A stretch of 64,000 nt of DNA from Candidatus Curtissbacteria bacterium RIFCSPLOWO2_12_FULL_41_16 (GCA_001776545.1 MFBZ01000022.1:14065-78064); one strand, 5' to 3'; counted from the first letter of the stretch, positions 6,793 to 31,356 are shown. The notes: a model not told the origin generated them from the letters alone. A program made the numbers and translations.

Positions 6793-6930
6793 GTGTCACG
6801 AATTTATGCGAATTAGTTAATCCGAATTTACCCGAATTGAGCCCAGTATTTATCGTTCCATTAACTTTTAGTAACTTTTAGAGCCTCTAATTGGTGATTG
6901 GGAATTGGAAATTTGAAATTGGAAATTATT

Positions 6931-15278: not shown

Positions 15279-17099
15279 CTAGAATTGTTTTAAAACGGCG
15301 GCCGATTTTTTCTGCATCTCCAGAAGCTCTTCGGGCTTGGTGGTTACTAAATAGTGTTCGTCTTCCGAGGCGACTATACGAATGGCGACATGGTTTGGTC
15401 CGGCAAAGAAGATGCCTTCACCAACGTCGGCTGCCAGAAGTAAGTGCTTTTCGCCTTCTGATAGATAAAAGACTTCGGCGATCTGATCGATGGCGGCTGG
15501 CGATTGTTTTAGGAGAATCTGGATTGAAGAATTAGTGACGATAGCCTTACCATAATCGGTTCTTAGAAAGTCGGTAACATCCTGAGTGATAGTGGTCAGA
15601 CCCAGATAATACTTTCTGGCCCTTTTGGCGATACTGTACATGAAGGTAGCGCTGTCAGGGTACTGCATCATATACCAGGCCTCATCGACAATGAGAAGGC
15701 GCTTTCTAATATTGTTTTTAATTCTGGTCCAGATAAAGTCTAAAATCAAATACATGGCAATTGGCCGCAGCTCATCCTCCATGTCTTTAATAGAAAAGAC
15801 AGTAAAAGTATTTTTAATGTCGATATTGCTTTGTTGGTTAAAAATGCCAACCAGCGAGCCTTTAACAAATTTCTCAATGCGATCGGCAAGACCGCGGGCG
15901 GCCTGATCTTCCATGCCAAGAAGTATTTTATAGAGATCTTCCATTAGAGGAGGTTCGTTTTTTTGAGTTGCCGGATCAGGGGTAATCCCTTTGGCTTTAT
16001 AGGTGGCAACTAAGGCTCGGTCTAAAAGAGCATCTTCAGTCGGAGTTAAATTGCCCATGATGACTTTGAAAAGTCCATGCAGAGAAAGAATTTTTAGACC
16101 AAGTTCATTTTCGCCTTCTTCATAAACACCGGAGAGGTCAAATGGATTGATTTTAGCGGGTGAGTTGAAATTAAAAGTAATATATTCCCCGCCGATTGCC
16201 TCACAAAGATTTTTATATTCTTCCTCCGGATCGATGACGATAATTTCAGTACCGAACATTAGGGAGCGAAGAGCTTCGAGCTTCACCAGATACGATTTGC
16301 CGGCACCGGATTTGGCAAAAATGACGGAATTGGCGTTTTCTAAAGAAAAGCGGTCAAAAATCACCAGAGAGCCGTTGTGTTCATTGATCCCATACATAAT
16401 GCCGGTATTTGAGGTTAGTGATGAGGAGATGAAAGGGAAAGTGGTCGCAAGGGAGGTGGTATCCATGTTGCGTGTAATATAGATATGGTCAGTGCCCTGC
16501 GGCAGGGTAGTTTTGAAAGCCTCTTCCTGCTGGAGAGTGGCATGTTTGGGGACTAAAAGCAGTGAGCCCAGGGTTGACTCTACTTGTTTGGTGATGGTAT
16601 CCAGTTCTTCACGACTGTCGGCAGGGATAGTGACATAGAGGGCAAACTGAAAGAAGCGTTCGGCTCCTTTGACTAATTCTTCTTGTAGAACCTGTGCATC
16701 TTCCAAAGCAGCTTGGACGGCCGGGTCGAGAACGCGGCCATGTTGGATATCGGTGGCGATGGTAGCTTCCATTTCGGTGATTTTGCGCTTGAGATCATCA
16801 AGAACTCCCTTTGCCTCGACCGGGTAAGAGTACATGGCAATTTCCAGAGTGTGTTCGAAATTAATTAAGGGAGCAAGCCAATTAGCCTGCACAAATCTGG
16901 GGTAGCCTACGACAAAAAGGGTCCTAAAATATGTTGAGCCAACTTTAATGAAGTCGAAATCGACTTCAATTGCCGGAGGCGCAATGATGTCTTTAACTGA
17001 GACGATGCCAGTCGCAAGTGTTTGAACCCACTGCTTCTGCTTATCGGAAAGCTGGGTCTCTCCTGTTTTTTTAGGCGCAAATGGGTTAAATATGCTCAT
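15279..17099 (-). CDS. VirB4/TraC/TrbE-family type IV secretion ATPase
   Basis: 606 aa with Walker A AKSGAGKS and Walker B LLIVDEAW. Size and motif order match VirB4-like conjugation ATPases. Confidence 0.8.
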   Translation of the reverse strand: MSIFNPFAPKKTGETQLSDKQKQWVQTLATGIVSVKDIIAPPAIEVDFDFIKVGSTYFRTLFVVGYPRFVQANWLAPLINFEHTLEIAMYSYPVEAKGVLDDLKRKITEMEATIATDIQHGRVLDPAVQAALEDAQVLQEELVKGAERFFQFALYVTIPADSREELDTITKQVESTLGSLLLVPKHATLQQEEAFKTTLPQGTDHIYITRNMDTTSLATTFPFISSSLTSNTGIMYGINEHNGSLVIFDRFSLENANSVIFAKSGAGKSYLVKLEALRSLMFGTEIIVIDPEEEYKNLCEAIGGEYITFNFNSPAKINPFDLSGVYEEGENELGLKILSLHGLFKVIMGNLTPTEDALLDRALVATYKAKGITPDPATQKNEPPLMEDLYKILLGMEDQAARGLADRIEKFVKGSLVGIFNQQSNIDIKNTFTVFSIKDMEDELRPIAMYLILDFIWTRIKNNIRKRLLIVDEAWYMMQYPDSATFMYSIAKRARKYYLGLTTITQDVTDFLRTDYGKAIVTNSSIQILLKQSPAAIDQIAEVFYLSEGEKHLLLAADVGEGIFFAGPNHVAIRIVASEDEHYLVTTKPEELLEMQKKSAAVLKQF

Positions 17100-18100
17100 A
17101 CCGTTTTTCTTGATTCCGACTGCACGTTGTCGGGAGTACCCACAATTGTGTCATTGGCATTTTGTTGCGGTCGGACGATTTGGGCAACCCTGGCGGTTGC
17201 CTCCTGAAGGTTTTTTAAAGCCTCTACTTGATTATCGGTCGCTGGTCTTTGAGGTACTGGTCTTAAATTTGGACCAGTTTCGTTAAGAGGGTAAGCAGCA
17301 GCCGGCTGGGTTGGTAGGGAAGTTGGGTAGGCACTAAAGGGTTGGTTCGCAGTAATTTGTGACTTGTCGTCTGCTATTTTTGACTGCTCAGTGGCGGGGA
17401 CCGGATTCGGGCCAGAAGGCGGCGGAGCCGGCGAGGGGATTTCAACGGCCGGTTCAACTATCGGGGTGGTGTATGAGGAGGTGTCCAGAAGAATTCTTTG
17501 GGTTCCGGTCGGCGCCGGGTTGTAGATATCGTAGAAAAGCTCGATTAATTCTTGGGTAGTTAATTGTCTGGCCGAAAGTCCTAACCTGGCCATTTGTTTG
17601 ATTAAATGATCACGTTTGGGCAAAAGCGCGATTTTGGCGTCGGCAATAAGCTGCGATTTACCGCCGCTTTTAGTTGGTTTTCTGCCAGTAATGTTTTTGA
17701 AACCGAGTTCAAGCGGGGAGAAGTTAATGATTAAATAAAATTTTTTATCAAGAACCGTTTTTTGCTGGACAGTCGACTCTATAAAATCCAGATATTTTTG
17801 GATTTGTCTTTTAAGATCAGGGTTTGGTTGGGCATGTTCGGCCTCGGAGAGGCTGGCAAAATACGAGGTAATGTCAGCTTTTTTGGAGCGAATAAGAACT
17901 TCTACCGGAAAGGTTAATGAGTTTAGAAGAGCACCATAGGCATAAATCGTGGCATCCTGTTCGGCTTCAGACAAGAGGTCAAAGTTAACGGCAGTTAAAG
18001 ATAAGACAAGAGCAACCCAACCGGTTTTTAAAATTACCAAGTCGTCTATAATATTCTCTATGTCTAAATGTTCTTGAGTAGAGGCTTTAGTTTTTGCCAT
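17096..18100 (-). CDS. Hypothetical protein with a Pro-rich C-terminus (T4SS-locus associated)
   Basis: 334 aa with a 4-bp start/stop overlap with virB4-like. The C-terminal third is Pro/Gln-rich and low-complexity. No assignable domain. Confidence 0.4.
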   Translation of the reverse strand: MAKTKASTQEHLDIENIIDDLVILKTGWVALVLSLTAVNFDLLSEAEQDATIYAYGALLNSLTFPVEVLIRSKKADITSYFASLSEAEHAQPNPDLKRQIQKYLDFIESTVQQKTVLDKKFYLIINFSPLELGFKNITGRKPTKSGGKSQLIADAKIALLPKRDHLIKQMARLGLSARQLTTQELIELFYDIYNPAPTGTQRILLDTSSYTTPIVEPAVEIPSPAPPPSGPNPVPATEQSKIADDKSQITANQPFSAYPTSLPTQPAAAYPLNETGPNLRPVPQRPATDNQVEALKNLQEATARVAQIVRPQQNANDTIVGTPDNVQSESRKTV

Positions 18101-18109
18101 ATATTAGTA

Positions 18110-19666
18110 TCAGTCCTTTGCTTTGACTTCCAGCGGAGCTAAAATTTGGCCTTCTAAGTTGATAGTGAAAGGCTCGAAGTGGGCCTGTTCACTTTCAATT
18201 TCTACTGAATACTTTCCGTTGGCAAGGGAGGTGACTGAAAGAAACTGTCCGAGTTTGTTGGTTTTAAGGGCACGAACGGGAATGCCATTTTCATCTCTGA
18301 CGATAATGATTGCACCAACAATTGGAGTATTATCTTTGCCACTTGTGGCCTGTCCCGAGAGAGTATTTGGATTAGTGGTTAGAGGAATGATTTTGGCCTT
18401 ACCAAGGCCGGCTGCAATTGAGGTTACGTTGGGATTTTGGCCTACAATAGAGATTTTCGAGTCGGCTATTACCTCTTGTTGCTTGAAGGAGGCATTTTGA
18501 GGAGCTGGTCTCTGGTTTGGTTTTGGAACAAAGTAGGCTTGTTTTGCATGAGCTGCGCGTTGGGTGTGTTTTTCAAAAGAGGTTGTGGTGGCCTGATGAG
18601 ATGGACCAGTCCAGACCGGAGGCTGGTTGCCTTTGGCTGGTTTCGGCTGGGGCTCATTAGTTATTGGTTCTGTAGTTTCCGGGAACCGGAAGCGCTTTTT
18701 AAGCTCTTCGGAAATCTCGAATCTGCGCTCGCCCCTGACTGGTAATTTCGACAGGTCAAAATCGACAGGCGGCGCAAAGTGAAGTTTTCTGACCCTGGTT
18801 TTGCCGACTGGCGGCAAAAAGGCTAGACGTTTGTCTGGCGTTTTAATGGGAATGACAAATTCCTGAGAGAAGTTGATATCTGAGGCCAGGTGACGGGGGT
18901 TTTTAGTTTCCTCTTCTTTCGGAGTGGAGTCTGAGAGCATAAGGAGTTCGACGGGGCCAGCATGGCCCGGGCCAAGTTTGGTTTCAAGGCCAGGGAGTAC
19001 GTAAGGCTTGGCATGGGAAGAAATTTTAACTGATGTGCGGGGTGAGAACATAATTGGAGGTTTGGTAGAAGGCAAGGATTCGGGCATGGGGGGAGTTTGG
19101 GCCAGGGTTAACTGGGGCACGGCTTTGATTTGGGGCAGGGCTTCTGAATAAAAGAGAATTGGCGCGGGTAGCTTTCCTTTGGGCACTTGTCCATATTCTT
19201 GGAGTTCAAGTCTTTGGAGCGCGATTTGCTCTTTGACATCAAGTGGCGCTACCTGACCCTTAGGGAGTGAACGTAAATAAGCAAGGAGCCTGGAGCGGCC
19301 TTGGGCGGTGGTTGTTTCTGGAGGATGTTTTTCGGGCAATGGGGCAGAGGTGACAACATTTAAGAACTCTGGTGTTTTTGATTCCTTAATCCAGGTGCGC
19401 AGCGTTGGTGAAAGAACGGAGCGGATAAAGGCGACTAACCATTTATCCAGTGGACGGCCGCCGAATGGCACAAGAGCGGCGATAAAGCCCAGAACGGCGA
19501 AGATGAGACTGGCGGGAATTTTTAAAATTGGGGCGAGAGGAGAGAAAAAAATCAAGGCGGCGACAGAGAGGGGAATTGCCAATGTTATAAACTGGCGAAC
19601 AGTCAGGTTACCAAAAAGTTTAAATTCAAAAGAAGCAATATGTTGCGGGACAGGATGTTGTTCCAT
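18110..19666 (-). CDS. PrgI/VirB3-like membrane protein with a long C-terminal extension
   Basis: The N-terminus (MEQHPVPQHIASFEFKLFGNLTVRQFITLAIPLSVAALIFF) plus a second TM helix resembles the PrgI (VirB3-like) family of Gram-positive T4SS. The remaining ~400 aa are Pro-rich and end in a beta-sandwich-like segment. Confidence 0.5.
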   Translation of the reverse strand: MEQHPVPQHIASFEFKLFGNLTVRQFITLAIPLSVAALIFFSPLAPILKIPASLIFAVLGFIAALVPFGGRPLDKWLVAFIRSVLSPTLRTWIKESKTPEFLNVVTSAPLPEKHPPETTTAQGRSRLLAYLRSLPKGQVAPLDVKEQIALQRLELQEYGQVPKGKLPAPILFYSEALPQIKAVPQLTLAQTPPMPESLPSTKPPIMFSPRTSVKISSHAKPYVLPGLETKLGPGHAGPVELLMLSDSTPKEEETKNPRHLASDINFSQEFVIPIKTPDKRLAFLPPVGKTRVRKLHFAPPVDFDLSKLPVRGERRFEISEELKKRFRFPETTEPITNEPQPKPAKGNQPPVWTGPSHQATTTSFEKHTQRAAHAKQAYFVPKPNQRPAPQNASFKQQEVIADSKISIVGQNPNVTSIAAGLGKAKIIPLTTNPNTLSGQATSGKDNTPIVGAIIIVRDENGIPVRALKTNKLGQFLSVTSLANGKYSVEIESEQAHFEPFTINLEGQILAPLEVKAKD

Positions 19667-19866
19667 GATTGCAATTGCTAGATTGTTACATTGCTAAATT
19701 GTTGAATTGTTTAAAAATAAGCAGAGCTTTTCTTCGAATAACAATCTAACAATGAAACAATATAACAATATCACCCTACCATATGAAACAAGGTGCGGAA
19801 AGTAGATCAAACAGCCTCAAAATAGGCAGATTTTCACAGATGGAGAGTTAGTGTGATTTGCTGGAA

Positions 19867-20510
19867 CTAGTGTTTTGCAAGCATTGAAAGTTGATATCTT
19901 TTGACTTCTGTGAAGATCTTATTCTTGGCTTTTTCCCAAGAGAAGTCCGCGTCAAGGACTTTAATCGACCTGGGATATTTTTCTTTTTCAGCATCCTCAA
20001 GATAGATTAGTGCGCGCAGAATGAGCATCAGTTGATAGCCAGGGTACTTTTTAATAGCGAAGTTAATAAGTTCTCCTAGCGTGTAGAAGTTGAGAAGATA
20101 ATAGATGTCTATAAAATCGCGCCTTGTGCCCCCTTGAATAATGGCAGCCAGTTTCATGGCGGCAACGTCAGCAAGACTAGCAATACTTATGTCTTGATAT
20201 TGTTTCAGAGGTTCAAGTAGTTGATACGAATAGTAAAAAAAGAAAGTTCTGTTTCGCCTATAATACTTTTTAAGGTATCTTCTGCCGTAAGTAGCGTTTT
20301 GGCATTTGGGAAAGTTTTTTTAATGTCTTTGGCAAGTCGAGGACTTGGGAATTTTTTTTGACTATAGAAGTCAAAGTCGATGGATGTCCGGTGACCAATC
20401 TGCAGTGCTAGTGCTGTGCCGCCGGCGAGATAGAAACCCGGGGCCTTTGGCAATTTCAGCTCTTTGACTATTGCAAGCTGATTTTTATTCAGAATGTGCG
20501 AATGCATCAA
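19867..20510 (-). pseudogene. AbiEii/AbiGii-like nucleotidyltransferase toxin, split by a frameshift
   Basis: Piece 20205..20510 carries GFYLAGGTALALQIGHRTSIDFDFYS (GGTAL...D.D nucleotidyltransferase motif). Piece 19867..20157 carries RRDFIDIYYLL and ALIYLEDAE, which are AbiEii C-terminal motifs. The two pieces lie in different frames. The downstream frame remains open upstream of its ATG and reads ...PLKQYQDISIASLADVAA. A T7 homopolymer (~20217-20224) lies just before the upstream stop at 20205. Confidence 0.45.
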
Positions 20511-20833
20511 ATTTTGAAAAGTTTTTTGTAGAGATTAAGATTTGCGTTAGGGTCCAGATTAATGTAGGCTAACTCTTGTTTAAACTTGGGAGCTTCAACA
20601 CCCAAAATTTTTTGCCAATAAAGCAGGCTTATTTTGTACCACATGCCCCTTCTTGGGTTTCGCAACACACGTCTAATGCCGTTGAGGCTGTAATTGTTAA
20701 ATAGCCATAAAACGGCTTTTTGATCACCGAGATTTAAAACTTGGGTGATGATAGTTTCCTTATGGCGTTTTTTCTCCATTTTTTTAATATCGTAAGACCA
20801 AAGATATGGTTGCAAAAAGTTAGGGAGAGCCAT
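20507..20833 (-). CDS. Putative cognate antitoxin/partner of the AbiE-like NTase (hypothetical)
   Basis: 108 aa. Its stop overlaps the NTase start by 4 bp (ATGA), the classic arrangement for a TA operon. No confident family assignment. Confidence 0.35.
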   Translation of the reverse strand: MALPNFLQPYLWSYDIKKMEKKRHKETIITQVLNLGDQKAVLWLFNNYSLNGIRRVLRNPRRGMWYKISLLYWQKILGVEAPKFKQELAYINLDPNANLNLYKKLFKI

Positions 20834-20970
20834 AAGTATAGTTTAGCATATTTTGAGCGTAATTCGCAGGGGCGGAAAGTAGATTTTTTTCACAAAACAG
20901 AATGCTGGGCCTTCCGAGTGTTCTAACTGATTCCTGCTATGGGCTAGAATTATGGTAAAATAGGGGCAAC

Positions 20971-23900
20971 ATGGCAGAAGTACCTTTGCGTCCGACATTG
21001 CCGGGGGATGAGGAGCCCAGAAGAGTTCCCGGAACTGATGGCCCGTCTCGACTTGGTCGATCCGAGGCGGACGAGGAAAAACGCGCAGAAAAAGTCAAAG
21101 ACCTTAACCAGGAGGCGAAAGAGAAGAGATTAAGAGAGGAGCAAAAAAGGGCATATGAGTTTGTCAAGGAAGCTAAAAAGAGGATTGAAGAGACTAAAGC
21201 AAGAGGCGAGCAAGAAAAGATTCGATACAAGGAAGCGAAAAGTTATCTGGAAGCAGTTTCGTCACTTCAGGACGAAAACCCAGTAATAATTAACCCCGAA
21301 GAGCTTAAAACCTACAAAGATTTGCTTATGAAGCACGGCTATCTTAAGGCTTCCGAGATTAATAAATTAGAGCCCGCCCAGGTAGTGGTTATTTTTCAGG
21401 CAGTGGCCCGAGAGGTGGGGTTTGAAGAACCACAAGAAGAGGATTTTTCTTACACTGAAGGAGAAAATCGAGAGCTGGAGAGAAAAAGAGCAAAGAGTTT
21501 AATCAGACAAGCAGAAAGTGTCGACGAGGAAACCTTAAATGTAGAAAAAGTGGGGCAAAATTTAACTGTTGAGGAATTTGAAAAGGCGGCTGAACGTAGC
21601 GGGCCGGGGACGATGGAGAGACCAGAAAGAAAGGCTGAAGCTCATGAGGGGGAACCAGTTTCATTCATTGTCCAGTCGCGGAAACATCTGGCGGTTTTAT
21701 CTCAGGAAGATGTTGCGCAAATTTGTGAAGCACAGGTCGTGCCTGAACAAATTATCGTTGAGGCGACTTCTGGATGGGAAGATAAGGACTATGTTGACCG
21801 CGGGGAGGCTCTTAGGAAGAATGGTATTTTTAACACTCAAGAACTGACGGCCGAAGGGGTAAAATCCGAGAGGTCTGTAAGCGATGCTCAGGCGGGATCC
21901 GAGATTGTTTATGAGGATAAAGCGAAAAAGATTTTAGTCAGTCAGTCGCCATCTGGCAAATATTATGTTGTTGGAGTGACTGATTTGGAGCCAGAGACAA
22001 TAGGGGATTTATTAAAGAGAGCCAATATTGAAAAAGAGCTAAAGCCCCCTAAAGATTGGCAGGCTATGAGTTTCCCCGAAAAGCGGCAATGGTATAAGGA
22101 GACGGGTATCGAAGTGGTCCCGGTATTTTCAGGGGGTGGTACTCGTTGGGGTGACAATGATCGGATAAGTGAAATAAAAGCGGCAAGTCGTCTAGAAACA
22201 TTACATGCTGTCGAGGAAGATTTATTCCAGCAAGGATTAACCAGCGGGCTTAGCGAAGAAGATGCAAAAAGAGAAGCGATACGACAGCTCGAAGCGGAAG
22301 GAGATCGTACCGAGCTGGGTGAGCATTTAGGGCGACTCAGGAATGCCGAGGTGATCTTGCAGAATTTATTCAACGATTCAGTGAGAGGGATCAATGTTCG
22401 CGGGACGCCACAGATGGCTGATTTGGACTCTTTAATTGCTTTTATTCGTAATTATGGCAGGCAAAACTACAGGTTTGTTAATCAGTTTAATCAGGCGGTG
22501 GAGGGTATTGCTTCGTCTGCGGAAGCAGCTGGGCAACTGGCAGCATTGCATCGTTTTTTGCCTGCAAATGTTATTGCGGAACTAAGTAGGATTCGTAGGG
22601 ACGTGCATGACGATTGGCAGCGAGTCTATAAAGCTATGGATCCCAAGATCAGAGACAGGCTCTTCCAAAGACTCAAAGAAGAAACGCAAAGTTATGCCCA
22701 GTCGCTTCGGGCAGGATTTTATGGGACAAGAGAAGTTGAGGCGCGACTGGCACCGACTATTTTAGAGGAATCCAGAAAAGAATTACTAGGGCAAGAAGGG
22801 TTTATAGAATGGCGGGCCACAATTGAAATTGAGGGAATGAAGACTAACCAATTGGAAGCACTTTTAAAGGGGCCGCCAACAGACTGGCGGGAATCTGAGA
22901 GCCATTTAAATAGCATTTTAAGATTTGTGGAATCTACAGATTTTACCCCAGAGCAGATAAGTTCTGCCTTGCAAAGGGCGGTTGCTATTCCAGAGTCGAT
23001 CCCCATCGGAGTACTAACGGGAGATGAATTGAGTGAGGCAAAAGAAATGCAGGATAGGTTAAATAGAATCCTTAAGGCAACTCAGGCAATGCACACTTTG
23101 AGGGTAACAGCGGAGCGCGCGAGCCTAAATCCGGAGGCTATCGGCAAGGTTTTTGAAGGGTTTGACGACGAGACATTCAGAATTTACTTTAGCCGTTTTG
23201 CCAAGGATGCCTATGGGAAAGATTTTGAATTCAAGGATGCAGCCGGAAACATACAAAAATTCAATCTTTTGGATAAAGCACTGCAGGAGATTTTCAAGAG
23301 ACTGAAGAGGGAAAGAATAGATATGAATTTGGTTGAAGAATTATCAAGGTACGATATAAGTCGGAAGTTAACAGCAGGTGAATTGAATGATATTTGGAGC
23401 AGATGGTACAAACGAACGGGGATAATGGGGACCTTGCCAGAGGTAAGAGGTCGGCTGGAGGAGTTAAGAAAAGAGATGGTTTCGAGGATAAGTAGAAGAG
23501 GCTGGGACTCTTCTGATTGGGCGACTAATTTTGACCGCAAAAAGGCGGTGATTGGCGGGTGGCACGTAGAGGCTAATCTTTTAGGTGTAACCAAAGGGAA
23601 GGCTCGCCCGACACCAGGAAGGCCAATGGGCGAAAGGTATTTTGATCAACGCAGACGAGAACTAAGCGAGAGCTTAGAAATGATTTTGCAAGAGCCGGTG
23701 ATCGGCTTGACCGCGCAGCAGATTAAGGATTTAAGAAATACGGGGCTTTTGGATCAGGTTAACAATAATGCTTACTATCTTGCTTGGACTCTGGCTTTTT
23801 CAGAATACGATACGATTAGGGTTTGGGATAATGGCAGACGTGATGCTTTCGGCAATCAAGGAGACTGGCGAGATATAGTTAAAAGTTGGGATTCAAGCAA

Positions 23901-24876
23901 CTGGTACGGTTTCCATGTCGATCACCTGCCGGAATTTTATCTCAATGAAAATCGGGGTAGGCCAAATGATGTGAACCAGGTTTTATGGAAGCACATGCTG
24001 GGTAAAAGAAGGAAGTATGTTTTGCCGCAGTTGCGATTTTTGGTCAGAACAATAGGCCAGTGCGGGCTTTTAGAAGGGGGGAACGATCCGGAAGCATGGG
24101 GGAACGATCCGGAATTGCGTACCGCGGTGAATAATAAAATGACTGAGCTTTTTGAGGCTCATCGTGCCGAAACCGGTTTGGATTTTGTAGAAGGCAATGA
24201 TGAGGCAAGAGGTTGGGCAAGCGGGGCAGCGATAGCGGAGTTGATTATGAACGGCGATGATGTTATTCCTTTTGACAAGCTTAATTGGAGTGAAGTTTTT
24301 GAAAGATTGGACTGGACTAGCGATTATCAAAAGGAGGAAAGTAACATAAGCAAATATAATTTAATCGATATTTTTGATGACCGGACTCAAGGCCGGCGCT
24401 ATTTTGGTGCAGATCATCTGCAGGCCTATTTGGGGCAGCCGAGTACAGCCAGATTTATGGATGTTAACAGCCGCGAAAAGTTTTATTCCAAAAGGAACGT
24501 GCGCATTTGGCCTTGGATGAAAATGGTTTTGCCAGCCCATAGAGAAATTGGCCATTATTGGAAAAGATGGTTTAAGATGCCCGAGAGGATGCCACTTGCA
24601 GAAGCTGAGGGGGCGGTCGATCTGGCTGTTCAGACTGGAGTATTGGACCCCAAGAGTGTATATCCTCTAAAGAGGCAAATGTTAGGTGTGCGACTGGGTG
24701 CATTTCATATCCCTGGGTGGTGGTGGTTACGAGGCTTAAGGGAGTCAGGGGAGGCTACTCACATTCTCGCTAAAGAGACGGGGAGGGGATATCTGACTTC
24801 GCCTTTGGGGATGTTTTTTGAGTTTCTTCGGCAATTATTTAAGTATAGTGCCGGTGCTTTGGGTGGGCAGTCTTAA
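20971..24876 (+). CDS. Giant hypothetical protein (1301 aa), candidate secreted/T4SS-associated protein
   Basis: Single long ORF on the opposite strand to its neighbours. The N-terminal ~120 aa are extremely K/E/R-rich and coiled. No TM helix and no recognisable catalytic motif. Confidence 0.55.
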   Translation: MAEVPLRPTLPGDEEPRRVPGTDGPSRLGRSEADEEKRAEKVKDLNQEAKEKRLREEQKRAYEFVKEAKKRIEETKARGEQEKIRYKEAKSYLEAVSSLQDENPVIINPEELKTYKDLLMKHGYLKASEINKLEPAQVVVIFQAVAREVGFEEPQEEDFSYTEGENRELERKRAKSLIRQAESVDEETLNVEKVGQNLTVEEFEKAAERSGPGTMERPERKAEAHEGEPVSFIVQSRKHLAVLSQEDVAQICEAQVVPEQIIVEATSGWEDKDYVDRGEALRKNGIFNTQELTAEGVKSERSVSDAQAGSEIVYEDKAKKILVSQSPSGKYYVVGVTDLEPETIGDLLKRANIEKELKPPKDWQAMSFPEKRQWYKETGIEVVPVFSGGGTRWGDNDRISEIKAASRLETLHAVEEDLFQQGLTSGLSEEDAKREAIRQLEAEGDRTELGEHLGRLRNAEVILQNLFNDSVRGINVRGTPQMADLDSLIAFIRNYGRQNYRFVNQFNQAVEGIASSAEAAGQLAALHRFLPANVIAELSRIRRDVHDDWQRVYKAMDPKIRDRLFQRLKEETQSYAQSLRAGFYGTREVEARLAPTILEESRKELLGQEGFIEWRATIEIEGMKTNQLEALLKGPPTDWRESESHLNSILRFVESTDFTPEQISSALQRAVAIPESIPIGVLTGDELSEAKEMQDRLNRILKATQAMHTLRVTAERASLNPEAIGKVFEGFDDETFRIYFSRFAKDAYGKDFEFKDAAGNIQKFNLLDKALQEIFKRLKRERIDMNLVEELSRYDISRKLTAGELNDIWSRWYKRTGIMGTLPEVRGRLEELRKEMVSRISRRGWDSSDWATNFDRKKAVIGGWHVEANLLGVTKGKARPTPGRPMGERYFDQRRRELSESLEMILQEPVIGLTAQQIKDLRNTGLLDQVNNNAYYLAWTLAFSEYDTIRVWDNGRRDAFGNQGDWRDIVKSWDSSNWYGFHVDHLPEFYLNENRGRPNDVNQVLWKHMLGKRRKYVLPQLRFLVRTIGQCGLLEGGNDPEAWGNDPELRTAVNNKMTELFEAHRAETGLDFVEGNDEARGWASGAAIAELIMNGDDVIPFDKLNWSEVFERLDWTSDYQKEESNISKYNLIDIFDDRTQGRRYFGADHLQAYLGQPSTARFMDVNSREKFYSKRNVRIWPWMKMVLPAHREIGHYWKRWFKMPERMPLAEAEGAVDLAVQTGVLDPKSVYPLKRQMLGVRLGAFHIPGWWWLRGLRESGEATHILAKETGRGYLTSPLGMFFEFLRQLFKYSAGALGGQS

Positions 24877-24888: not shown

Positions 24889-26409
24889 TTAACCGCCTCC
24901 TTGTTCCAATGGTGGAGGTCTTGTTCCGACACCGCTTTTGAGAGATCTATTTAAGAATGGGACACGCTCTCCATATTTCGCAACCACTCCTTGAGCCATG
25001 CCCCAACTGGCGGCTTGACCGACTGCTCTGATGGGTGCGCCCAGAGGTCTACCAATGACGGCTGCCCCCGCACCGAGGGCGGCAGCTCCGGCACCACCGA
25101 ATTGTGGGCCTTTGGCGCCGATGGCGTTTTTGACAAGATTGGCCGCTTCGGGTGTCATGAAGAGAAATCCGAGAGCTATTATTTTACCAATTGCGCCAGG
25201 ATTAAGTCCACCGACAAGCAATGGGAACTTGAGAGCTTCGGAGGCGACTCCTTGAAGCTCGCCTGCTCCGGTTCCTCCAAATGCCGAAATTCCACCGATT
25301 GCCCCGGCAAATATAATCATTAAGGAAACCGTGGGGAAAACGGCGATATTGGCGGCCATTTGTTTAAACCATTCTTTGGCGCCGGTGTTGCCAGGAAGTG
25401 CCTGGATTAAAAAGAAAAAAGGTGCGACCATTGTCAAAATAATAATCATGACATAGGCCATCAGCAGCATTAAGAAAACCCTAAACATAATAAAAAGAGC
25501 GGCGATGCCGACGATTAAACCGGCTATTCCCCCTACGCCCCATTTAATTAAACCAAGTACAGCGCCGCCAGAGATGACGCTGTCCAATAGGCCCTTGATT
25601 GCTTCAGCTGTTGTAGTGAAAACATCTTTCCAGCCACCGACGATTACACCGAAGATACTTTTGTCAAAAATTACAGATGAAGCTTTAGGGGCAGCAATAA
25701 CACCTGCTTCTGCTAATAATTGAATTATGATGTTTATTACAAGGAACATGAGATCGATCATGAGACCGGCGATGGCATAACTGAAAGTAACTAAGATTAG
25801 AGCCACGACAATTCTGGGAATTGAGTCCTGAACGGTGGCTACGGCTTGCGGTGAAATATGGGCGCGGAACATGATCATGAAGCCGATGATCACAAAGACA
25901 ATAACAAAACCTACGTAGGAGGCATTTCTGAAGACTCTCCAGAGGTTAATTACTGGACTTAAAGCTTTGTATCCTTCTCCTTGGGCATAAACAGGTTGTA
26001 CTGGATTAAACTTTTGGAATTCTTGGGCGAAATATTGGACTCCTGAAGCGGGCGGGTTTCCATATAAACTTGCTACTAAGTTCGATGTTGCAGCTAAGGC
26101 TCCTCTACCTGCGGTGAGTTCATTTGTTTCTGGATGAAGGAGCGAGAATCCTAGGATTTGAGTATTTAAACTGTCAACCGTTCCGGCAATTTGGTTAAAG
26201 TTAAAAATTTTATCATCGAAGATATTTTTATCAATCGCACAGCGGTTAAATTGGTTAATAAGTTCTTGATCTGTTGCGTTTGGGTTGTAAGTGCATTGGG
26301 CGTGGACGGGAGAGATGGTAGCGAGTAGCATGTAGCTGGTAACTAGTAGAAAGGTAACTAGTAACTTGCAACTAGTAACTAGTGACCAGATTTTGGCAGC
26401 TAATTTCAT
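24889..26409 (-). CDS. VirB6/TrbL-like polytopic membrane protein
   Basis: 506 aa with a signal/TM N-terminus, a periplasmic segment, 6 or more TM helices and a Gly-rich C-terminal tail, the organisation typical of VirB6/TrbL. It lies in the same locus as virB4-like. Confidence 0.55.
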   Translation of the reverse strand: MKLAAKIWSLVTSCKLLVTFLLVTSYMLLATISPVHAQCTYNPNATDQELINQFNRCAIDKNIFDDKIFNFNQIAGTVDSLNTQILGFSLLHPETNELTAGRGALAATSNLVASLYGNPPASGVQYFAQEFQKFNPVQPVYAQGEGYKALSPVINLWRVFRNASYVGFVIVFVIIGFMIMFRAHISPQAVATVQDSIPRIVVALILVTFSYAIAGLMIDLMFLVINIIIQLLAEAGVIAAPKASSVIFDKSIFGVIVGGWKDVFTTTAEAIKGLLDSVISGGAVLGLIKWGVGGIAGLIVGIAALFIMFRVFLMLLMAYVMIIILTMVAPFFFLIQALPGNTGAKEWFKQMAANIAVFPTVSLMIIFAGAIGGISAFGGTGAGELQGVASEALKFPLLVGGLNPGAIGKIIALGFLFMTPEAANLVKNAIGAKGPQFGGAGAAALGAGAAVIGRPLGAPIRAVGQAASWGMAQGVVAKYGERVPFLNRSLKSGVGTRPPPLEQGGG

Positions 26410-26510: not shown

Positions 26511-27893
26511 TTAGCCACAGGTTGCTTCCATACCGCATTCGGGGCATTTTCTGACTCCGCTGCCGTAGCGGATAATATAGGTGCATTTTTCTTTCTTGTC
26601 TGTTTCGGGATCTACTTTCCAGCCTGGGCACTGAAAATCGCTTGTATCTTCATCTTCGTCATCGGTAAATGGAGCAAAATCCAAGACTGACTTAGCACCT
26701 ATGGCTCTTGCAAGTTGTTTGAGGAGTGGTGGTTGACTGACATTGAATCCTTTCTGACCGCCCGGACAACCCCGAGCGACGGGGCGAACAGGCTGTCTAC
26801 CGAAATGATTGATAAGATTATTAGTATTTTGAGGTCCGACCTCTGAGAATTCAAACTCTCTTTTGGAGGTCGGACCTCTTAAAAAACAAGTGGCATACGT
26901 GGTCTTTTTTTCTTCTCGGAGCTGTTTTTCAGTTAAGTCCGCCACATTATAGATGGCATTTAAGGTCAGTTTTATTTTTTCGATATCAAGAGGGTTTTCG
27001 ATTAAAGTTCGGATATAGGCAAGGATAAAGGGCGTACAGGCTTCAATGATCTGCTGGTTCACCTGATATTTTTGGGCCGATTTGTCAAAGCCAAAAACAG
27101 CCAAAATTTCCTCAAGAGATTTTTGGGATCTAATGGGAGTTTTTAAGAAGAAGGCCGCATTTAATCCTTCGGATGGGTCTCTAAATTGGGGACTAACAGC
27201 CTGGGCGGCTTTCAGAAAACTTTCAAGTGAATGTGTTGAGTGATATCTCGTCATATTTATTTTGCCCGACTTTTTTTGATAAACATCAAAAAGGTTTTCC
27301 GTGTAGAGGCTACCTTCGGGACTTTGTGGTGAGATGACAATGATTTTGGCTTCTTCCACCTCCGAGGAGCCAGGGCTCACCTCGGAGGTGTTGGTAAAGA
27401 GTTCTTGAATCTTGGCAATGCCTTCGACTTCTGCGGTTTCTCTTTCAGTTTCTGTACTGCCATTTGTGGTCAAGAACCTTCTGCCTTTTTCATATTCTTC
27501 AACGATTGGCCCCGGGTAATCTGGACTATAGAGCCTGCCATCCGTAACAATGAAGTATTCGATGGTACTTTTTTCGACGCCGAATCTTTCTCCTAATGCT
27601 TTTTCTATTTGACGTTTGGTGCGGTTATTGGTTTGGATTAATAATTGGGCGTATTCTTCGGGTGGAATTTTGCCGTTTAGACTCTTAAGATCCAGATAAT
27701 CTTGAATATCGTGGCGGGGATTGTAGCCCATGATGCCCTTGAATTCTTTGGGTATTTCCCAGAAAACGGGTTCTGCTTTTATTAAGACACCCCTGGGGTG
27801 TAAGGCTACTCCCACCCCAGGAGTGGACGTGAAAGGCGAGTCCACCTTGGAGGTGTCATGAGTGTGAGGGATAATGATTGTTCTTTCGGGCAC
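26511..27893 (-). CDS. Hypothetical protein with a C-terminal Cys cluster
   Basis: 460 aa. The C-terminus contains CPGG...CPGW...CPECGMEATCG (putative zinc ribbon). No other assignable domain. Confidence 0.4.
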   Translation of the reverse strand: MPERTIIIPHTHDTSKVDSPFTSTPGVGVALHPRGVLIKAEPVFWEIPKEFKGIMGYNPRHDIQDYLDLKSLNGKIPPEEYAQLLIQTNNRTKRQIEKALGERFGVEKSTIEYFIVTDGRLYSPDYPGPIVEEYEKGRRFLTTNGSTETERETAEVEGIAKIQELFTNTSEVSPGSSEVEEAKIIVISPQSPEGSLYTENLFDVYQKKSGKINMTRYHSTHSLESFLKAAQAVSPQFRDPSEGLNAAFFLKTPIRSQKSLEEILAVFGFDKSAQKYQVNQQIIEACTPFILAYIRTLIENPLDIEKIKLTLNAIYNVADLTEKQLREEKKTTYATCFLRGPTSKREFEFSEVGPQNTNNLINHFGRQPVRPVARGCPGGQKGFNVSQPPLLKQLARAIGAKSVLDFAPFTDDEDEDTSDFQCPGWKVDPETDKKEKCTYIIRYGSGVRKCPECGMEATCG

Positions 27894-28208
27894 AAAAAAA
27901 CCTCCGTGTGCCCGAGTAGGAGGTTAGTTGTGCTTCTTAGGCAACTATCCTGCTCGGGATTCGACTTCGCCATTGCGGTATTCGGACTCCTCACTGCGTT
28001 CGGAGTAAACTATTACTTTGTCTAGTTGCTAAACAATTGTTAACAACATTCGAAGTTAATAATTTATGTCGAACGTATGCGAGACACCGTTGCGGCACAG
28101 TGGGAGAGTTGCACTCCACTTCCCCGCAATGGGAATAAATTACTTAATTTACATTAGCATTTATGGCGAGTGGTAGCAAGAGGAATTTTGTTATAAAGGG
28201 ATTGTCTG

Positions 28209-29981
28209 TTAAGGCTGTTGACCACAGTCAATTTTAACACCGAGAGAATCCTGTAAGGCTTTGGGTTTGAGGGCCAAATCACGGACGATTTCTTTACCGC
28301 AATCGGTAGCGCCAATAAATCTTTTCTTGAGATCCTCATCTCCACTTTCAATTTGTTTGCCAGGTAAGCTTTTGGAAAGAAGATCGGGTAGGCAGTACTT
28401 GACTAAGCGCTCGGCATCACCTTGGGCGCATTCACTAGCAATCTTGCTAGTTTGATTGCAGGCTGCTTGGTTACCATCTTTACATCTTTGCACAAGACTG
28501 GCAAAGGTCGGCGGTAAGAAATAATCGCCGACCGCTTGAGGTGTAAAGAAACTATAAACCCCCGGCCTGCCGGTTTCTTGTAAAGACTGAGTTCCTGTTT
28601 CTGCCTGATCCGAGTAAAGGGTACTATTCCAAATTTCTGCAAGCCAGGGGACGCGAAAGACCGGCCAGATTTTTAGAGGTAAAAAGCAAGTGTACGTACC
28701 GTCGCCGTTATCGTCACAGTGATCAAATATCTTAGCTTTATTTTCTGGATCGATAGTAACTTCGCCTATCCAGGTAATATTAAAGGTACAAACTACGTTG
28801 GGATTATCCTGATCGAGTTTATTCTCGTCAGTTTTATTTTGACAAGTTTCACCAGGTAAAAGTTGATCAGCTGGTAAGGCACAATACTTCTCATTGCCTT
28901 CTTTGGCGGGCTTGGAGATTTTAAAACAGCCTGTCGGAGTAGTATCTGTTTGGGCAAAAGCGGTTTTGATAGGATTGGCCGAATCAAGAGAGATTTTAAT
29001 CACCCGCCGTAAGCTTTTGAGGAGAGCTTCTGGTGTTTGGTCAAGTAGCTTCTTACAGAGCGAGAGAGCTTTGGAAAGAATATTACCCGCATCAGCTTGT
29101 TGAGTGATAGTCCCGTGGTCTCGAAATGATTGGGCGGCATAAGGAACAATCATTTGATTAAGCTGATCAGAGGTGGCAGTGGTTCGCCAAAATTGGGGGA
29201 GGATAAATTCGATTACTCGAGGGAGCGATAAAAGACAAAGTTTGCCTGCCTCGAATTGTCTGATGGTTTCCTTGCCCACAGCTTGTTTAAATTCTAATTT
29301 ACCGACATAGAATTCGCTATAAGCTGTGGGGATTTTTTCCCAGTAGCGGCCCCAAGTGGCCAGCCATTGAGTTCTATCCTCATTGGCCTCGGGTGGGTCA
29401 GGGAGCCCAAATTCGCCAACCAGATCATAAATAGTTTTGGGATCACCCTTACCTTCAATATCTGTGTATTTATTGGTAGATTCGAGAAGTGTGGGTTTAT
29501 TGTAGACATACTCCACATATTTTTTTCTCAAGTCATCAATAAGGATTTTGGCAGAAGTCTTTTGGCCAGGCCCATGGAAAAGATTAAAATTTTGGCTGGA
29601 AAGATTGACAATGTTGGCTAGACGGTGGGCATCATCTTGGAATTTGCCCTCAAGGTAATTGGAATTGGTTGTGGAGAAAAGAGCTTGGAGATTGGAAAAA
29701 TCGACTGTAAAACTAAAAGATTGGGAAACGATGACATCCTCATCGCGTTTACCCTTAACTTGAATTGCTTGATCATCAGTGAATTTGATAGGCGCATCTC
29801 TATTTTCGTCGGTGATGTAATTGTCGGTTAATTTATCGGTTTCAACGGCATTTTCGCATGGTTGAGGATTAGGGGGGCCAGCGGCGCTTGCGCCGCTAGT
29901 GATAAGTGATAAGTGATAAGTGATAAGTAAAAAAAATACTATAAGAGAAATGCGAAAAGTGCTTATGATCATACTTTGCAC
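28209..29981 (-). CDS. Secreted cysteine-rich hypothetical protein
   Basis: 590 aa with an N-terminal signal peptide and about 20 Cys residues. The signal-peptide region is encoded by a (GTGATAA)4 repeat plus a T8 tract. Confidence 0.5.
   Translation of the reverse strand: MQSMIISTFRISLIVFFLLITYHLSLITSGASAAGPPNPQPCENAVETDKLTDNYITDENRDAPIKFTDDQAIQVKGKRDEDVIVSQSFSFTVDFSNLQALFSTTNSNYLEGKFQDDAHRLANIVNLSSQNFNLFHGPGQKTSAKILIDDLRKKYVEYVYNKPTLLESTNKYTDIEGKGDPKTIYDLVGEFGLPDPPEANEDRTQWLATWGRYWEKIPTAYSEFYVGKLEFKQAVGKETIRQFEAGKLCLLSLPRVIEFILPQFWRTTATSDQLNQMIVPYAAQSFRDHGTITQQADAGNILSKALSLCKKLLDQTPEALLKSLRRVIKISLDSANPIKTAFAQTDTTPTGCFKISKPAKEGNEKYCALPADQLLPGETCQNKTDENKLDQDNPNVVCTFNITWIGEVTIDPENKAKIFDHCDDNGDGTYTCFLPLKIWPVFRVPWLAEIWNSTLYSDQAETGTQSLQETGRPGVYSFFTPQAVGDYFLPPTFASLVQRCKDGNQAACNQTSKIASECAQGDAERLVKYCLPDLLSKSLPGKQIESGDEDLKKRFIGATDCGKEIVRDLALKPKALQDSLGVKIDCGQQP
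29882..29925. repeat. (GTGATAA)x4 heptanucleotide tandem repeat followed by an A8/T8 homopolymer, inside the signal-peptide coding region
   Basis: The plus strand reads agtgataagtgataagtgataagtgataagtaaaaaaaa. The minus-strand translation is FFLLITYHLSLITSG. Confidence 0.8.
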
Positions 29982-30029
29982 TTTGCACTTAGTACTTCTT
30001 TGAATCCGGGCAGCAGACTCATTCCTTAA

Positions 30030-30140
30030 GTATAATTGCTACATTGCTACATTGCTACATTGTTTGGTTAAGTTTCTAAATTAAATAATGATGATGTTTT
30101 TCTAAAACAATTTAACAATGGAACAATTTAACAATTTCTA
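30030..30140. repeat. Intergenic 8-bp-period tandem repeat (ATTGCTAC)x3 plus a CAATTTAACAAT cluster
   Basis: attgctacattgctacattgctacattg, then acaatttaacaatggaacaatttaacaattt. It belongs to the (ATTGYTAN)n family seen at nine or more intergenic sites. Confidence 0.7.
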
Positions 30141-30142
30141 TC

Positions 30143-30487
30143 TTACTTTGGTATTTCGACTGTGGTGACATCGACGCCGGTGAGGCCAGCGATTAACTTA
30201 AGGATAAGCCAAGAGGCCACAACTAAAATGATGCCAATGACAGCCATGGTGAGGGTACTACGGGCCTGGCCGGCGGCTTTAGGATCGCCGCCTGAGGTGA
30301 CAAACTGGAAGCCGCCAACCAAAAGCATTACAAAAAAAGCAATACCGGCCGCCGGGGCCAGAAGCTTAATGATTCTTTGAAGAATATCCACGACATCCAA
30401 AAGCTTGGCTGGTGGTGGATCAGTTTGGGCATAGACAGGCGAAACAAAAGCTGTCAAAAGCCCAACCAAAGTTAAGAAAATCCGCAT
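30143..30487 (-). CDS. T4SS pilin-like small membrane protein (paralog 1)
   Basis: Start trimmed to MRIFLT (ATG at 30485-30487). Signal peptide, a hydrophobic helix, a TSGGDPKAAGQAR motif and a second hydrophobic helix, resembling TrbC/VirB2-like and CPR T4SS pilins. Confidence 0.55.
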   Translation of the reverse strand: MRIFLTLVGLLTAFVSPVYAQTDPPPAKLLDVVDILQRIIKLLAPAAGIAFFVMLLVGGFQFVTSGGDPKAAGQARSTLTMAVIGIILVVASWLILKLIAGLTGVDVTTVEIPK

Positions 30488-30497
30488 GAGTTTCTGG

Positions 30498-30887: not shown

Positions 30888-30914
30888 CAGATTCTTTTCA
30901 CCTCCCTTTTAGAT

Positions 30915-31319: not shown

Positions 31320-31356
31320 ATAACAATTTAGCCATTTAGCAATTTAACAATTTGTA

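Follow-up and report, generated by a model that had tools for sequence, protein, structure and literature searches.

The 1301-residue protein described here is encoded at a fixed position in a T4SS cluster of Candidatus Curtissbacteria (Microgenomatia, Patescibacteria), and its gene is by far the fastest-evolving gene of that cluster. We regard it as the best current candidate for the cargo or the host-recognition factor of the Patescibacteria T4SS. Tentatively, and with a confidence that stays somewhat short of half, we read the product as a polymorphic, T4SS-dedicated passenger, that is a translocated substrate, or as a host-interaction or host-specificity factor. A passenger or host-specificity factor is most likely when set against a core structural subunit, because the body of the protein appears to diversify fast and to be exchanged by recombination between conserved flanks. 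The protein is modular, almost entirely alpha-helical, made in the cytoplasm and of an orphan fold, and is the polymorphic occupant of a fixed T4SS slot in Microgenomatia.

The window, by which we mean the whole stretch of 64,000 nucleotides that was analysed, holds the dnaA/dnaN-proximal chromosomal T4SS cluster of this organism. The genes in and around the slot are:

15279-17099, minus strand: VirB4 (P-loop_TraG, 1.9e-29; Pfam/NCBIfam)
17096-18100, minus strand: TrsD/TraC-like protein (Pfam/NCBIfam)
18110-19666, minus strand: PrgI/VirB3-like protein (Pfam/NCBIfam)
19867-20833, minus strand: variable slot upstream of the target, here an AbiE-type TA module (Pfam matches)
20205-20510 and 19867-20157, minus strand: AbiEii toxin of that module, split into two ORFs (Pfam)
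20507-20833, minus strand: DUF6922 antitoxin of that module (Pfam)
20971-24876, plus strand: the target gene, 1301 aa (ATG-to-stop ORF and translation)
24889-26409, minus strand: polytopic partner of 506 aa with signal peptide, ecto-domain and highly conserved polytopic core, convergent with the target
26511-33219, minus strand: 460-aa protein, 590-aa protein, then a T4SS_pilin gene array (gene calls, and Pfam on an identical contig)

An earlier note on this DNA had described a 1301-aa plus-strand gene embedded in a minus-strand T4SS-like block, the only one on its strand over about 20 kb, and both statements hold: the ORF is called at 20971-24876, and it is the sole plus-strand gene in the 23-kb block from 10957 to 34045, where all other credible genes lie on the minus strand and the remaining plus-strand ORFs are short and each overlap minus-strand genes. 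The T4SS-like character of the surroundings is likewise borne out by VirB4, the TrsD/TraC-like and PrgI/VirB3-like proteins and the pilin array, in which a 344-aa protein matches T4SS_pilin. The gene had been placed between an AbiE-like TA module and a VirB6-like gene; Pfam supports AbiE, whereas “VirB6-like” describes position and topology. The 506-aa partner lies at the VirB6 position, its seven overlapping Kyte-Doolittle hydrophobic hits amount to about 5 distinct TM segments, it has no match in Pfam or to PDB sequences, and we infer its VirB6 identity from position and topology. Neither the cluster nor the scanned ORFs of the window include a coupling protein.

The target ORF is a real gene and not a chance reading frame, as the identical protein is recorded on at least 23 contigs, HMMER collects 120 cluster representatives and AlphaFold2 predicts a structure with a mean pLDDT of 84. 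A scan for promoters and terminators gave no signal exceeding shuffles. Residues 1-100 consist of 19% E, 13% K and 12% R, in agreement with the charged N-terminus noted previously, and a Kyte-Doolittle scan of the protein finds no hydrophobic segment and thus neither a TM helix nor a signal peptide, again as had been proposed. The protein can be divided as follows, with all parts on the plus strand:

21091-21618, plus strand: N-terminal module, approximately residues 41-216, with the motifs LQDE..VIINPEELK, GYLKASEI.KL.P.Q and GPGT (identity, BLAST, model)
21589-21648, plus strand: linker and recombination breakpoint, approximately residues 207-226 (low pLDDT and identity switch)
21649-22125, plus strand: two small alpha/beta domains, approximately residues 227-385, in the type-B lineage only (alignability, model)
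22648-24873, plus strand: family-defining all-alpha core, approximately residues 560-1301, where nearly all members align (exhaustive search)
24688-24873, plus strand: C-terminal tail made up of a PFRRxRQ-like motif, a helix of roughly 20 aa that is hydrophobic or amphipathic, and a short basic terminus

The N-terminal module is found in about 40 family sequences, is modelled with pLDDT above 90 over model residues 1-110, and shares 58-61% identity with P0002 and P0003, against just 23-28% in the bodies of these two. The linker corresponds to segment 106-125 in the first model, where pLDDT is low. The alpha/beta domains have pLDDT 89-97 and no fold match, and align with L013, L011 and L016 only, not with L001, L003, L009 or L017. 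The core falls into three deep types by identity, bootstrap and alignment-free BLAST bit scores, and retains the invariant residues W614, N765, N786, W850, G872, E993, G996, D1133, D1137, S1173, R1175 and R1178. In the tail, the helix of the window copy is amphipathic; TM-like segments occur in 17 family sequences, in 16 of them near the C-terminus as the tail helix. The last 12 residues, after this conserved helix, carry a net positive charge in 53 of the 58 members. T4SS substrates often have a terminal signal with a positively charged C-terminus, with which this charge would be compatible, but it would also fit a membrane tether, and we know of no secretion signal defined for monoderm T4SSs.

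AlphaFold gave two confident models (pLDDT 84), nearly all-alpha and free of repeats; the one covering residues 102-1301 has pLDDT 84.1 and pTM 0.69. Foldseek searches with the models against PDB and BFVD returned nothing at E<=1e-3, only generic helical matches. For the large model, TM-scores are at most 0.13 in BFVD by either length, and in PDB at most 0.10 by query length and 0.21 by target length; for the N-terminal model they are at most 0.20, with a best PDB fold match at E 0.38. Marginal, non-significant Foldseek matches to phage internal-virion or ejection proteins were given no weight. The target has no match in Pfam, NCBIfam, PHROGs or PADLOC, nor in PDB when searched with its sequence and the family profile, and no profile match to any MPF component. 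The remote-homology search and structure prediction that had been suggested as a check yielded a confident fold but no relatives of known fold. The observation that no catalytic motif could be seen by eye agrees with Pfam, which finds no catalytic domain, and no domain of any kind, in the target and 40 family members.

Several identities can be set aside on this basis. An ARM/HEAT/TPR alpha-solenoid is contradicted by the lack of internal repeats (hhalign of four body segments, probabilities <=2.2%) and by Foldseek solenoid matches with TM-scores of at most 0.10 by query length and 0.21 by target length. A coupling ATPase (VirD4/TcpA) would need features that were looked for and are absent, namely a Walker A motif G....GK[ST] or other P-loop, a TM helix and an AAA/TraG-type Pfam match. 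VirB6 or extended VirB6 proteins have at least 5 TM helices, whereas the target has no TM segment and its 506-aa neighbour has several. A PrgB-type surface adhesin of monoderm T4SSs does not fit a protein that has neither a signal peptide nor a hydrophobic N-terminus and in which Pfam finds no adhesin domain, and a plasmid-borne cargo does not fit a family for which no plasmid occurrence was found.

A word-indexed search for homologues was overwhelmed by the low complexity of the N-terminus, and two scans of genome contigs, the first with low-complexity patterns, returned nothing. The family was counted by exhaustive HMMER search, which yields about 120 clusters, most of them of 1000-1400 aa, that form an orphan family. 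At every locus examined (L001, L003, L009/L010, L008, L011, L012, L013, L016 and L019) a member occupies the same slot, bounded on one side by the PrgI/VirB3-like gene and on the other by the polytopic gene that takes the VirB6 position, and two further loci chosen blind by VirB4 alone (L017 and L018) both carry one; the comparisons took in 7-11 loci. The proposed tie of the gene to the T4SS locus and to VirB4 is thereby upheld. The earlier note had named homology to a housekeeping protein or absence from syntenic T4SS loci as evidence that would speak against its reading; both were looked for and neither was seen. Wherever the flank is held, the member is convergent with the polytopic gene, and this convergent pair is kept even in L018, where the cluster is rearranged. 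The adjoining upstream slot has varied contents: L001 and L003 have nothing there, L016 has a Phd/PIN TA module, and L009, L017, L018 and L019 have a gene with a Trans_reg_C domain, accompanied by AAA_22 in L009, L017 and L018.

Over seven loci, median pairwise identity is 83% for VirB4 (range 80-91%), 66% for TrsD (57-85%), 53% for the polytopic partner and 51% for the PrgI-like protein (46-76%), compared with 25% for the target, whose body is 19-36% identical across loci. The target tree also conflicts, at bootstrap values of 93-100% (200 replicates), with the trees of the four machine genes that flank it. The clade of the window copy, L001 and L013 is supported by VirB4 (98%), TrsD (68%), the PrgI-like protein (94%) and the polytopic partner (96%), but has 0% support in the target core, which instead groups L001, L009 and L017 (100%) and the window copy, L013 and L018 (93%). 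As a control, the fast-evolving 590-aa gene still tracks the machine tree. dS against the closest relative is saturated, so no dN/dS value is given; members within a 90% cluster differ by 1-2 residues.

The window copy is a chimera, with an N-terminal module from one lineage and a body from another. Its residues 76-225 share 55-68% identity with L001 and L003 and at most 30% with the loci nearest in the core, residues 226-1301 are nearest to L016, L013, L018 and L011, and the switch of nearest relatives coincides with the low-confidence linker. In an N-domain alignment of 125 columns the group of the window copy, L001 and L003 has a bootstrap of just 22%, and we base it on pairwise identity (60-62% versus <=31%) and independent BLAST matches instead. 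Family-wide, in extracted segments, identity in the N-module and in the core correlate at just r=0.35, and pairs that disagree do so in either direction. P0117, which lies in the same slot, carries the same N-terminal region on an unrelated body: the family HMM matches only at positions 38-333 (E 5e-30), and its last 600 aa have no homology to the core (hhalign probability 0.1%), although it ends nonetheless in an amphipathic helix and a basic tail.

How might such a protein work? In the passenger or host-interaction reading, the constant parts, namely the N-terminal module and the C-terminal tail, would attach the protein to the machine and the membrane on their cytoplasmic side, and the large body would be the functional, host-facing part, diversifying quickly and passing between lineages by recombination with the conserved flanking genes as anchors. 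Docking to the machine, translocation and action on a host cell are all three steps that we infer. A product with neither Sec signal nor TM helix, genetically linked to a T4SS, is consistent with a T4SS passenger as far as sequence can tell, and the divergence, tree incongruence, intragenic mosaicism and alternative body would fit a substrate or host-interface role. The earlier proposal of a substrate or effector gains from T4SS linkage and variability; no toxin or catalytic domain and no HUH motif came to light, and the likeness to large secreted toxins goes no further than size and composition. Against the favoured reading stand the lack of any recognised effector, toxin or enzyme domain and of an adjacent immunity-like gene, and the fact that alpha-helical scaffolds can diverge fast without diversifying selection, with dS saturated here. 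Single copy, strictly fixed position and invariant polar residues across core types would also fit a machine adaptor, and the C-terminal helix, which in some members resembles a TM segment, would suit a cytoplasmic protein held by a tail anchor and not exported at all.

CagA of Helicobacter pylori, a dedicated translocated substrate of about 1200 aa encoded on a T4SS island, is largely helical, fast-evolving and of its own fold, and depends on a coupling protein and a chaperone. The target may be considered analogous in size, helicity, distinct fold, rate and T4SS-locus encoding, but there is no homology, and neither a coupling protein nor a chaperone was identified here. Polymorphic effectors such as LXG (T7SS), XVIPCD-bearing X-Tfe (T4SS) and Rhs/CdiA combine a constant delivery domain with variable parts; the target resembles them in its constant terminal module, divergent or unrelated bodies and evidence of recombination, and differs in having no immunity gene or toxin domain, a variable part of about 740-1000 aa that is mostly homologous between types, and two termini that both look constant. 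The C-terminal domain of F-plasmid TraG and the TraN types have variable regions that set partner specificity and occur as allelic types. The target is similarly large, allelic and in a VirB6-associated position, whereas its product is soluble and cytoplasmic, not membrane-bound or periplasmic, and has no detectable similarity to them.

The window cluster resembles the MPF-FATA-like T4SS of Patescibacteria in its VirB4, TrsD, PrgI/VirB3, VirB2-like pilin array and peptidase-bearing large protein, as well as in lying beside dnaA/dnaN and in having neither a relaxase nor a coupling protein close by (Wang et al, 2023, PMC10633639; Quinonero-Coronel et al, 2025, PMC12102498). The target's family of 1000-1400 aa is not among the components described in the available sections of these papers. 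These papers and a further report present Patescibacteria T4SSs as having no relaxase and no nearby coupling protein, and as essential to epibiotic growth in the only species examined for this, a member of the Saccharibacteria (PMC10633639; PMC12102498; PMC12857230).

Could the target instead be a cytoplasmic accessory subunit or adaptor, never exported and tethered by its C-terminal helix to the membrane or to the polytopic partner? This is the main rival, which we consider possible but somewhat less probable than the favoured reading. Such an adaptor might be a substrate receptor in place of the missing VirD4, or a free-standing counterpart of the large hydrophilic alpha-helical domains of “extended VirB6” proteins. 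Strict one-copy presence, the convergent pairing that survives rearrangement, the C-terminal helix, the residues invariant across all core types and the lack of a coupling protein in the cluster or among the scanned window ORFs would all suit it. So would two proteins of Southlakia epibionticum ML1, SEML1_0011, which adjoins the PrgI gene, and the VirB6-like SEML1_0013, both scored essential, with ARM-like helical parts, a KEGG membrane permease assignment (K01992) and a fold match to T4SS/VirB6-type proteins in the supplementary tables (PMC10633639). Like the target, these two and “extended VirB6” proteins are large, near PrgI and have big helical (ARM-like) parts (PMC12857230); unlike them, and comparing by description only, the target has no TM helix or ARM-type repeats and is a separate convergent gene. 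A subunit docking on partners that are 80-91% identical would however be expected to co-evolve with them, and the body is 19-36% identical with a contradictory tree, an unrelated body stands in its place at one locus (P0117), and the protein has neither a P-loop nor ARM/HEAT-type repeats.

That the gene is a passenger of a recombination hot spot with no role in secretion, for instance a defence, anti-defence or conflict gene lodged by chance between two conserved T4SS genes close to the replication origin, is in our view unlikely. The adjoining slot does collect differing TA modules (AbiE, Phd/PIN) and regulators, and the target shows allelic replacement and is transcribed against the rest of the block. 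Unlike the slot contents, however, it is present in every locus examined over VirB4 identities of 80-91%, stays attached to the polytopic gene after rearrangement, has no PADLOC or PHROG match and was found on no plasmid.

The two remaining explanations are not supported. An antibacterial polymorphic toxin delivered by the T4SS, in which, as in LXG, Rhs and X-Tfe effectors, the N-terminal domain serves delivery and is conserved while the toxic C-terminal region varies, would explain the constant N-module joined to divergent or unrelated bodies, the large size and the missing Sec signal, but is very unlikely given that Pfam finds no toxin domain in 40 members, that no locus has a small immunity-like neighbour, the downstream gene always being the conserved polytopic one, and that the three core types share homology along about 740 aa and are not short swapped toxin tips. 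Least probable of all is a relaxase or DNA pilot protein so divergent that profile searches miss it, which would turn the system into a conjugative or DNA-importing one. Large size, cytoplasmic nature and encoding in the locus would suit this, and surveys that saw no relaxase near most Patescibacteria T4SSs allowed for unusual ones (PMC12102498). Against it, the search for HUH relaxase or toxin domains proposed earlier found no H.H motif in the target and no such domain by Pfam in 40 members, the sole histidine-pair match (HVDH, 982-985) lies in family-variable columns, there is no relaxase/Rep Pfam match or nuclease-like fold match, and such extreme variability is untypical of a relaxase.

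What the Patescibacteria T4SS transports is an open question in the literature (PMC10633639; PMC12102498; PMC12857230), for which the passenger or host-specificity reading offers a concrete and testable candidate: it is always in the cluster, made in the cytoplasm and constant at its ends, and its body is replaced from one machine to another where these are otherwise nearly identical. If it is an adaptor, it would define how substrates are recruited by a monoderm T4SS that has no coupling protein, and under either reading the family of about 120 clusters has a confidently predicted fold that matches nothing in PDB or BFVD. More speculatively, and with some doubt, the family may constitute a cargo class of the Patescibacteria T4SS in which the N-module and C-tail feed a coupling-protein-less machine, while the recombining body acts on or inserts into the host bacterium, possibly with the C-terminal helix as a membrane-insertion element, and sets epibiont host range. 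If the protein is cargo or a host-specificity factor, one could look for a correspondence between its types and host taxa and use it to probe host exploitation by ultra-small bacteria.

The open reading frame at 20971-24876 on the plus strand, the target of this analysis, is real and encodes a product of 1301 aa. Every other credible gene between 10957 and 34045 lies on the minus strand, and the target is therefore the sole plus-strand gene in about 23 kb, a stretch longer than the roughly 20 kb for which the earlier note had claimed this. Also borne out are the K/E/R-rich N-terminus (E+K+R make up 44% of residues 1-100) and the lack of a TM helix or signal peptide, as no hydrophobic segment could serve as either; a Walker A motif is likewise absent from the sequence. 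Upstream lies the AbiE-like TA module described previously, consisting of DUF6922 and an AbiEii gene in two ORFs. Downstream, 12 bp separate the target stop codon from a convergent gene for a 506-aa protein. The earlier note called this neighbour VirB6-like: a polytopic membrane protein is indeed encoded there, as a putative VirB6. A protein identical to the target, from Candidatus Curtissbacteria (class Microgenomatia), carries the label 'hypothetical protein'.

The minus-strand block around the target is a T4SS cluster.

Features of the T4SS cluster in the window and beside it
7832-9190: dnaA, beside the cluster
9445-10608: dnaN, beside the cluster
11553-15176, minus: 1207-aa protein, about 6-8 hydrophobic segments in residues 565-862, weak PG_binding_4 match
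26511-27893, minus: 460-aa protein, cluster member
30143-33219, minus: pilin array of five to six small genes, most matching T4SS_pilin (VirB2-like)
minus: VirB4, P-loop_TraG, E 1.9e-29
minus: TrsD/TraC-like protein, cluster member
minus: PrgI/VirB3-like protein, 518 aa, cluster member
minus: 590-aa protein, cluster member

The genes jag/khpB, yidC, dnaA and dnaN (5519-10608) directly adjoin the cluster, which is therefore chromosomal and origin-proximal. The same dnaA/dnaN-side arrangement occurs in three homologous loci (L001, L017, L018), and an origin-proximal T4SS cluster has already been reported for Microgenomatia. We recognise in it the MPF-FATA-like T4SS that was reported for Patescibacteria in 2023-2025. 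According to portions of this literature, such systems lack a relaxase and have no coupling protein close by, carry pilin arrays, often lie near dnaA/dnaN, are essential in Southlakia epibionticum, and have no known substrate (PMC12102498, PMC10633639, PMC12857230). In the portions of the literature on Patescibacteria T4SS that we covered, no large soluble protein is mentioned for the target's slot, between the PrgI/VirB3-like gene and the polytopic gene.

Peptidase_M23 is present in the L001 and L003 orthologues of the 1207-aa protein; the corresponding region holds three genes in L009 and L017 (667-680 aa, about 195 aa, and an M23 peptidase of 204-209 aa) and a single 568-aa M23-bearing gene in L018. 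Within the cluster, stability is lowest for the 460-aa gene: orthologues were found in L009, L011 and L018, and in L001 and L003 an opposite-strand gene of 391-397 aa takes its place. The pilin-array proteins have two to four hydrophobic segments each, and one of them is 344 aa long with a pilin-like C-terminus.

The surrounding machine is of a known kind; the target family is outside all described families. The target has no match in Pfam, NCBIfam, PHROGs, PADLOC or PDB sequences. An exhaustive HMMER search over 1.84 billion cluster representatives gave 120 relatives, 96 of them with E<=1e-30; full-length relatives span about 900-1430 aa, most of them 1000-1400. No Pfam domain was found in the 40 members scanned, and the family profile matched nothing in the PDB. 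Conservation resides in the C-terminal ~740 residues, with 12 invariant columns across 40 members (W614, N765, N786, W850, G872, E993, G996, D1133, D1137, S1173, R1175 and R1178). For residues 102-1301, AlphaFold2 gives a nearly all-alpha model (58-sequence alignment; pLDDT 84.1, pTM 0.69) in which residues ~227-385 form two small alpha/beta domains; a second model, of residues 95-400, shows a compact N-terminal domain (pLDDT 84.2). Neither model had a Foldseek match at E<=1e-3 in PDB or BFVD. Comparing body segments with one another by hhalign showed no internal repeats, and the target is thus not an ARM/HEAT-type solenoid. Relaxases, coupling proteins, VirB6, the PrgB adhesin and solenoid repeats were all considered, and the target fails the defining features of each. 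The C-terminal design is kept across the family: a PFRRxRQ-like motif, a helix of ~20 residues and a short tail, which carries a net positive charge in 53 of 58 members. This helix ranges from amphipathic, in the window's copy, to TM-like; where family sequences have any TM-like segment, it lies near the C-terminus in 16 of 17.

The position of the gene is fixed: all family members on readable contigs occupy this one slot. The full arrangement is seen in L001 (a 677-kb contig), L003, L009 and L013; on the short contigs L008, L011, L012 and L016 the convergent polytopic gene can be recognised, in L016 as a C-terminal fragment only. In a blind test, two VirB4 homologues were picked solely by VirB4 similarity and contig size; in both loci, L017 and L018, the polytopic gene is faced by a convergent family member (E = 0 and 4e-183). 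The L018 cluster is rearranged, with the target on VirB4's strand, yet the pair is intact. The absence from syntenic T4SS loci that the earlier note had named as speaking against its reading was therefore encountered at none of the loci examined. As the sampled VirB4s are all at least 80% identical to that of the window, this linkage holds for this Microgenomatia clade only.

The polytopic partner (24889-26409, minus) combines a signal peptide with an ecto-domain of ~130 aa in which one Cys is mostly conserved, a membrane core of extreme conservation (e.g. FRNISYVGFVIVFVIIGFMIMFRAHISPQAVATVQD) and a variable Gly/Ala-rich tail; in L009, L017 and L019 it is N-terminally extended to 818-935 aa. 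It matches nothing in Pfam or PDB. VirB6 is noted as 'missing' in Microgenomatia in part of one report (PMC12102498), and the partner may be this protein. On the other side of the target, the gap to the PrgI-like gene is an insertion hot spot with contents that differ between loci.

Contents of the gap upstream of the target
Window, 19667-20970: AbiE TA module
L016, 338-987: Phd/PIN TA module
L009, 8563-9819: gene with Trans_reg_C domain; AAA_22 also recorded
L017, 5807-7129: gene with Trans_reg_C domain; AAA_22 also recorded
L018, 11834-13108: gene with Trans_reg_C domain; AAA_22 also recorded
L019, 49-1344: gene with Trans_reg_C domain
L001 and L003: empty, without AbiE module

The Trans_reg_C genes encode 418-440 aa. 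In the window's module (19867-20833, minus), the AbiEii toxin is split into ORFs of 101 aa and 96 aa, covering profile positions 10-88 and 145-185, a probable disruption; the antitoxin, DUF6922, seems intact.

How does the target evolve relative to its machine? Our comparison covers 7-11 loci, all of one clade.

Median pairwise identity across seven loci
VirB4: 83%
TrsD-like: 66%
Polytopic partner: 53%
PrgI-like: 51%
Target: 25%

As judged from these sequences, target divergence is not clock-like. The most similar machines, L001 and L013 (VirB4 91%), have target cores (the all-alpha part, residues ~560-1301) only 27% identical, yet cores are 41% identical between L001 and L017 (VirB4 83%). In NJ trees with 200 bootstraps, built on alignments of 20-40% identity and in agreement with BLAST scores, the clade of W (the window's locus), L001 and L013 is supported by VirB4 (98%), TrsD (68%), PrgI-like (94%) and the polytopic gene (96%). 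The target core gives it 0%, and instead backs {L001, L009, L017} (100%) and {W, L013, L018} (93%). The 590-aa protein, a fast-evolving control, still follows the tree of the machine genes. Alignment-free BLAST bit scores split the cores into three types.

Target core types
Type A: L001, L009, L017
Type B: W, L016, L013, L018, L011
Type C: L003, L012, L008

By its sequence affinities, the window's copy is a chimera. Over residues 76-225 its identity is 55-68% to L001 and L003, of core types A and C, against at most 30% to the loci nearest in core; from residue 226 on, the copy is nearest to type B, to which the alpha/beta insert is confined. The switch coincides with a low-confidence linker past a GPGT motif. 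Across 27 members bearing the N-module (residues ~41-216), identities of N-module and core correlate only at r = 0.35, with discordant pairs in both directions. The relative P0117 lies in the same slot, with a regulator gene on its upstream side; the convergent polytopic gene there shares 57% identity with that of the window. The P0117 match to the family HMM is confined to positions 38-333 (E 5e-30), and no similarity to the core was detectable in its other 600 residues (hhalign probability 0.1%); its C-terminus is still an amphipathic helix with a basic tail.

The target combines a fixed slot and constant ends with a body that diverges rapidly, recombines and is sometimes replaced, within a cluster whose remaining genes are inherited jointly and evolve slowly. 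This is the signature of a protein selected for conflict or specificity, and a core structural subunit would not be expected to show it. Because of this signature, cytoplasmic synthesis without a Sec signal, and a system without a known substrate, the best explanation, which we advance tentatively, is a polymorphic protein dedicated to the T4SS, either as its passenger or as a factor in host interaction. The N-module and C-tail would attach the target to the machine or membrane; the body would be the functional part, exported and acting on the host. CagA is a fast-evolving dedicated substrate encoded in its locus, and some effectors carry a constant delivery domain; in logic, these are the analogies closest to the target. 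With the target, this Patescibacteria T4SS has a component that is hypervariable and mosaic and has an orphan fold.

Somewhat unlikely is a cytoplasmic adaptor or platform subunit, which would fit the constant pairing of target and polytopic gene, the C-terminal tail helix, the invariant residues and the lack of a coupling protein; S. epibionticum moreover has large proteins with helical (ARM-like) parts beside PrgI that were scored essential. However, a subunit that docks on such near-invariant partners should co-evolve with them, and the target shows no such co-evolution. A hot-spot hitchhiker with no tie to secretion is improbable, given universal presence in the loci examined and retention after rearrangement. 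For a classical polymorphic toxin, of which the target satisfies only the architectural half of the definition, the missing toxin domain and immunity gene leave very little room, and a divergent relaxase, with neither catalytic motif nor relaxase-type fold, is barely credible.

At the cluster edge, 33452-34045 (minus) encodes a 197-aa protein with a PaaX_M/Cas2-like domain. About 10 kb past the cluster, a large serine recombinase (43229-44611, minus; Resolvase, Recombinase and Zn_ribbon_recom), adjoined by several ORFs without a Pfam match, may mark an integrated element. Small 23S_rRNA_IVP-family genes lie near the cluster in two unrelated loci (L008, 6089-6451; L019, 7328-7882).
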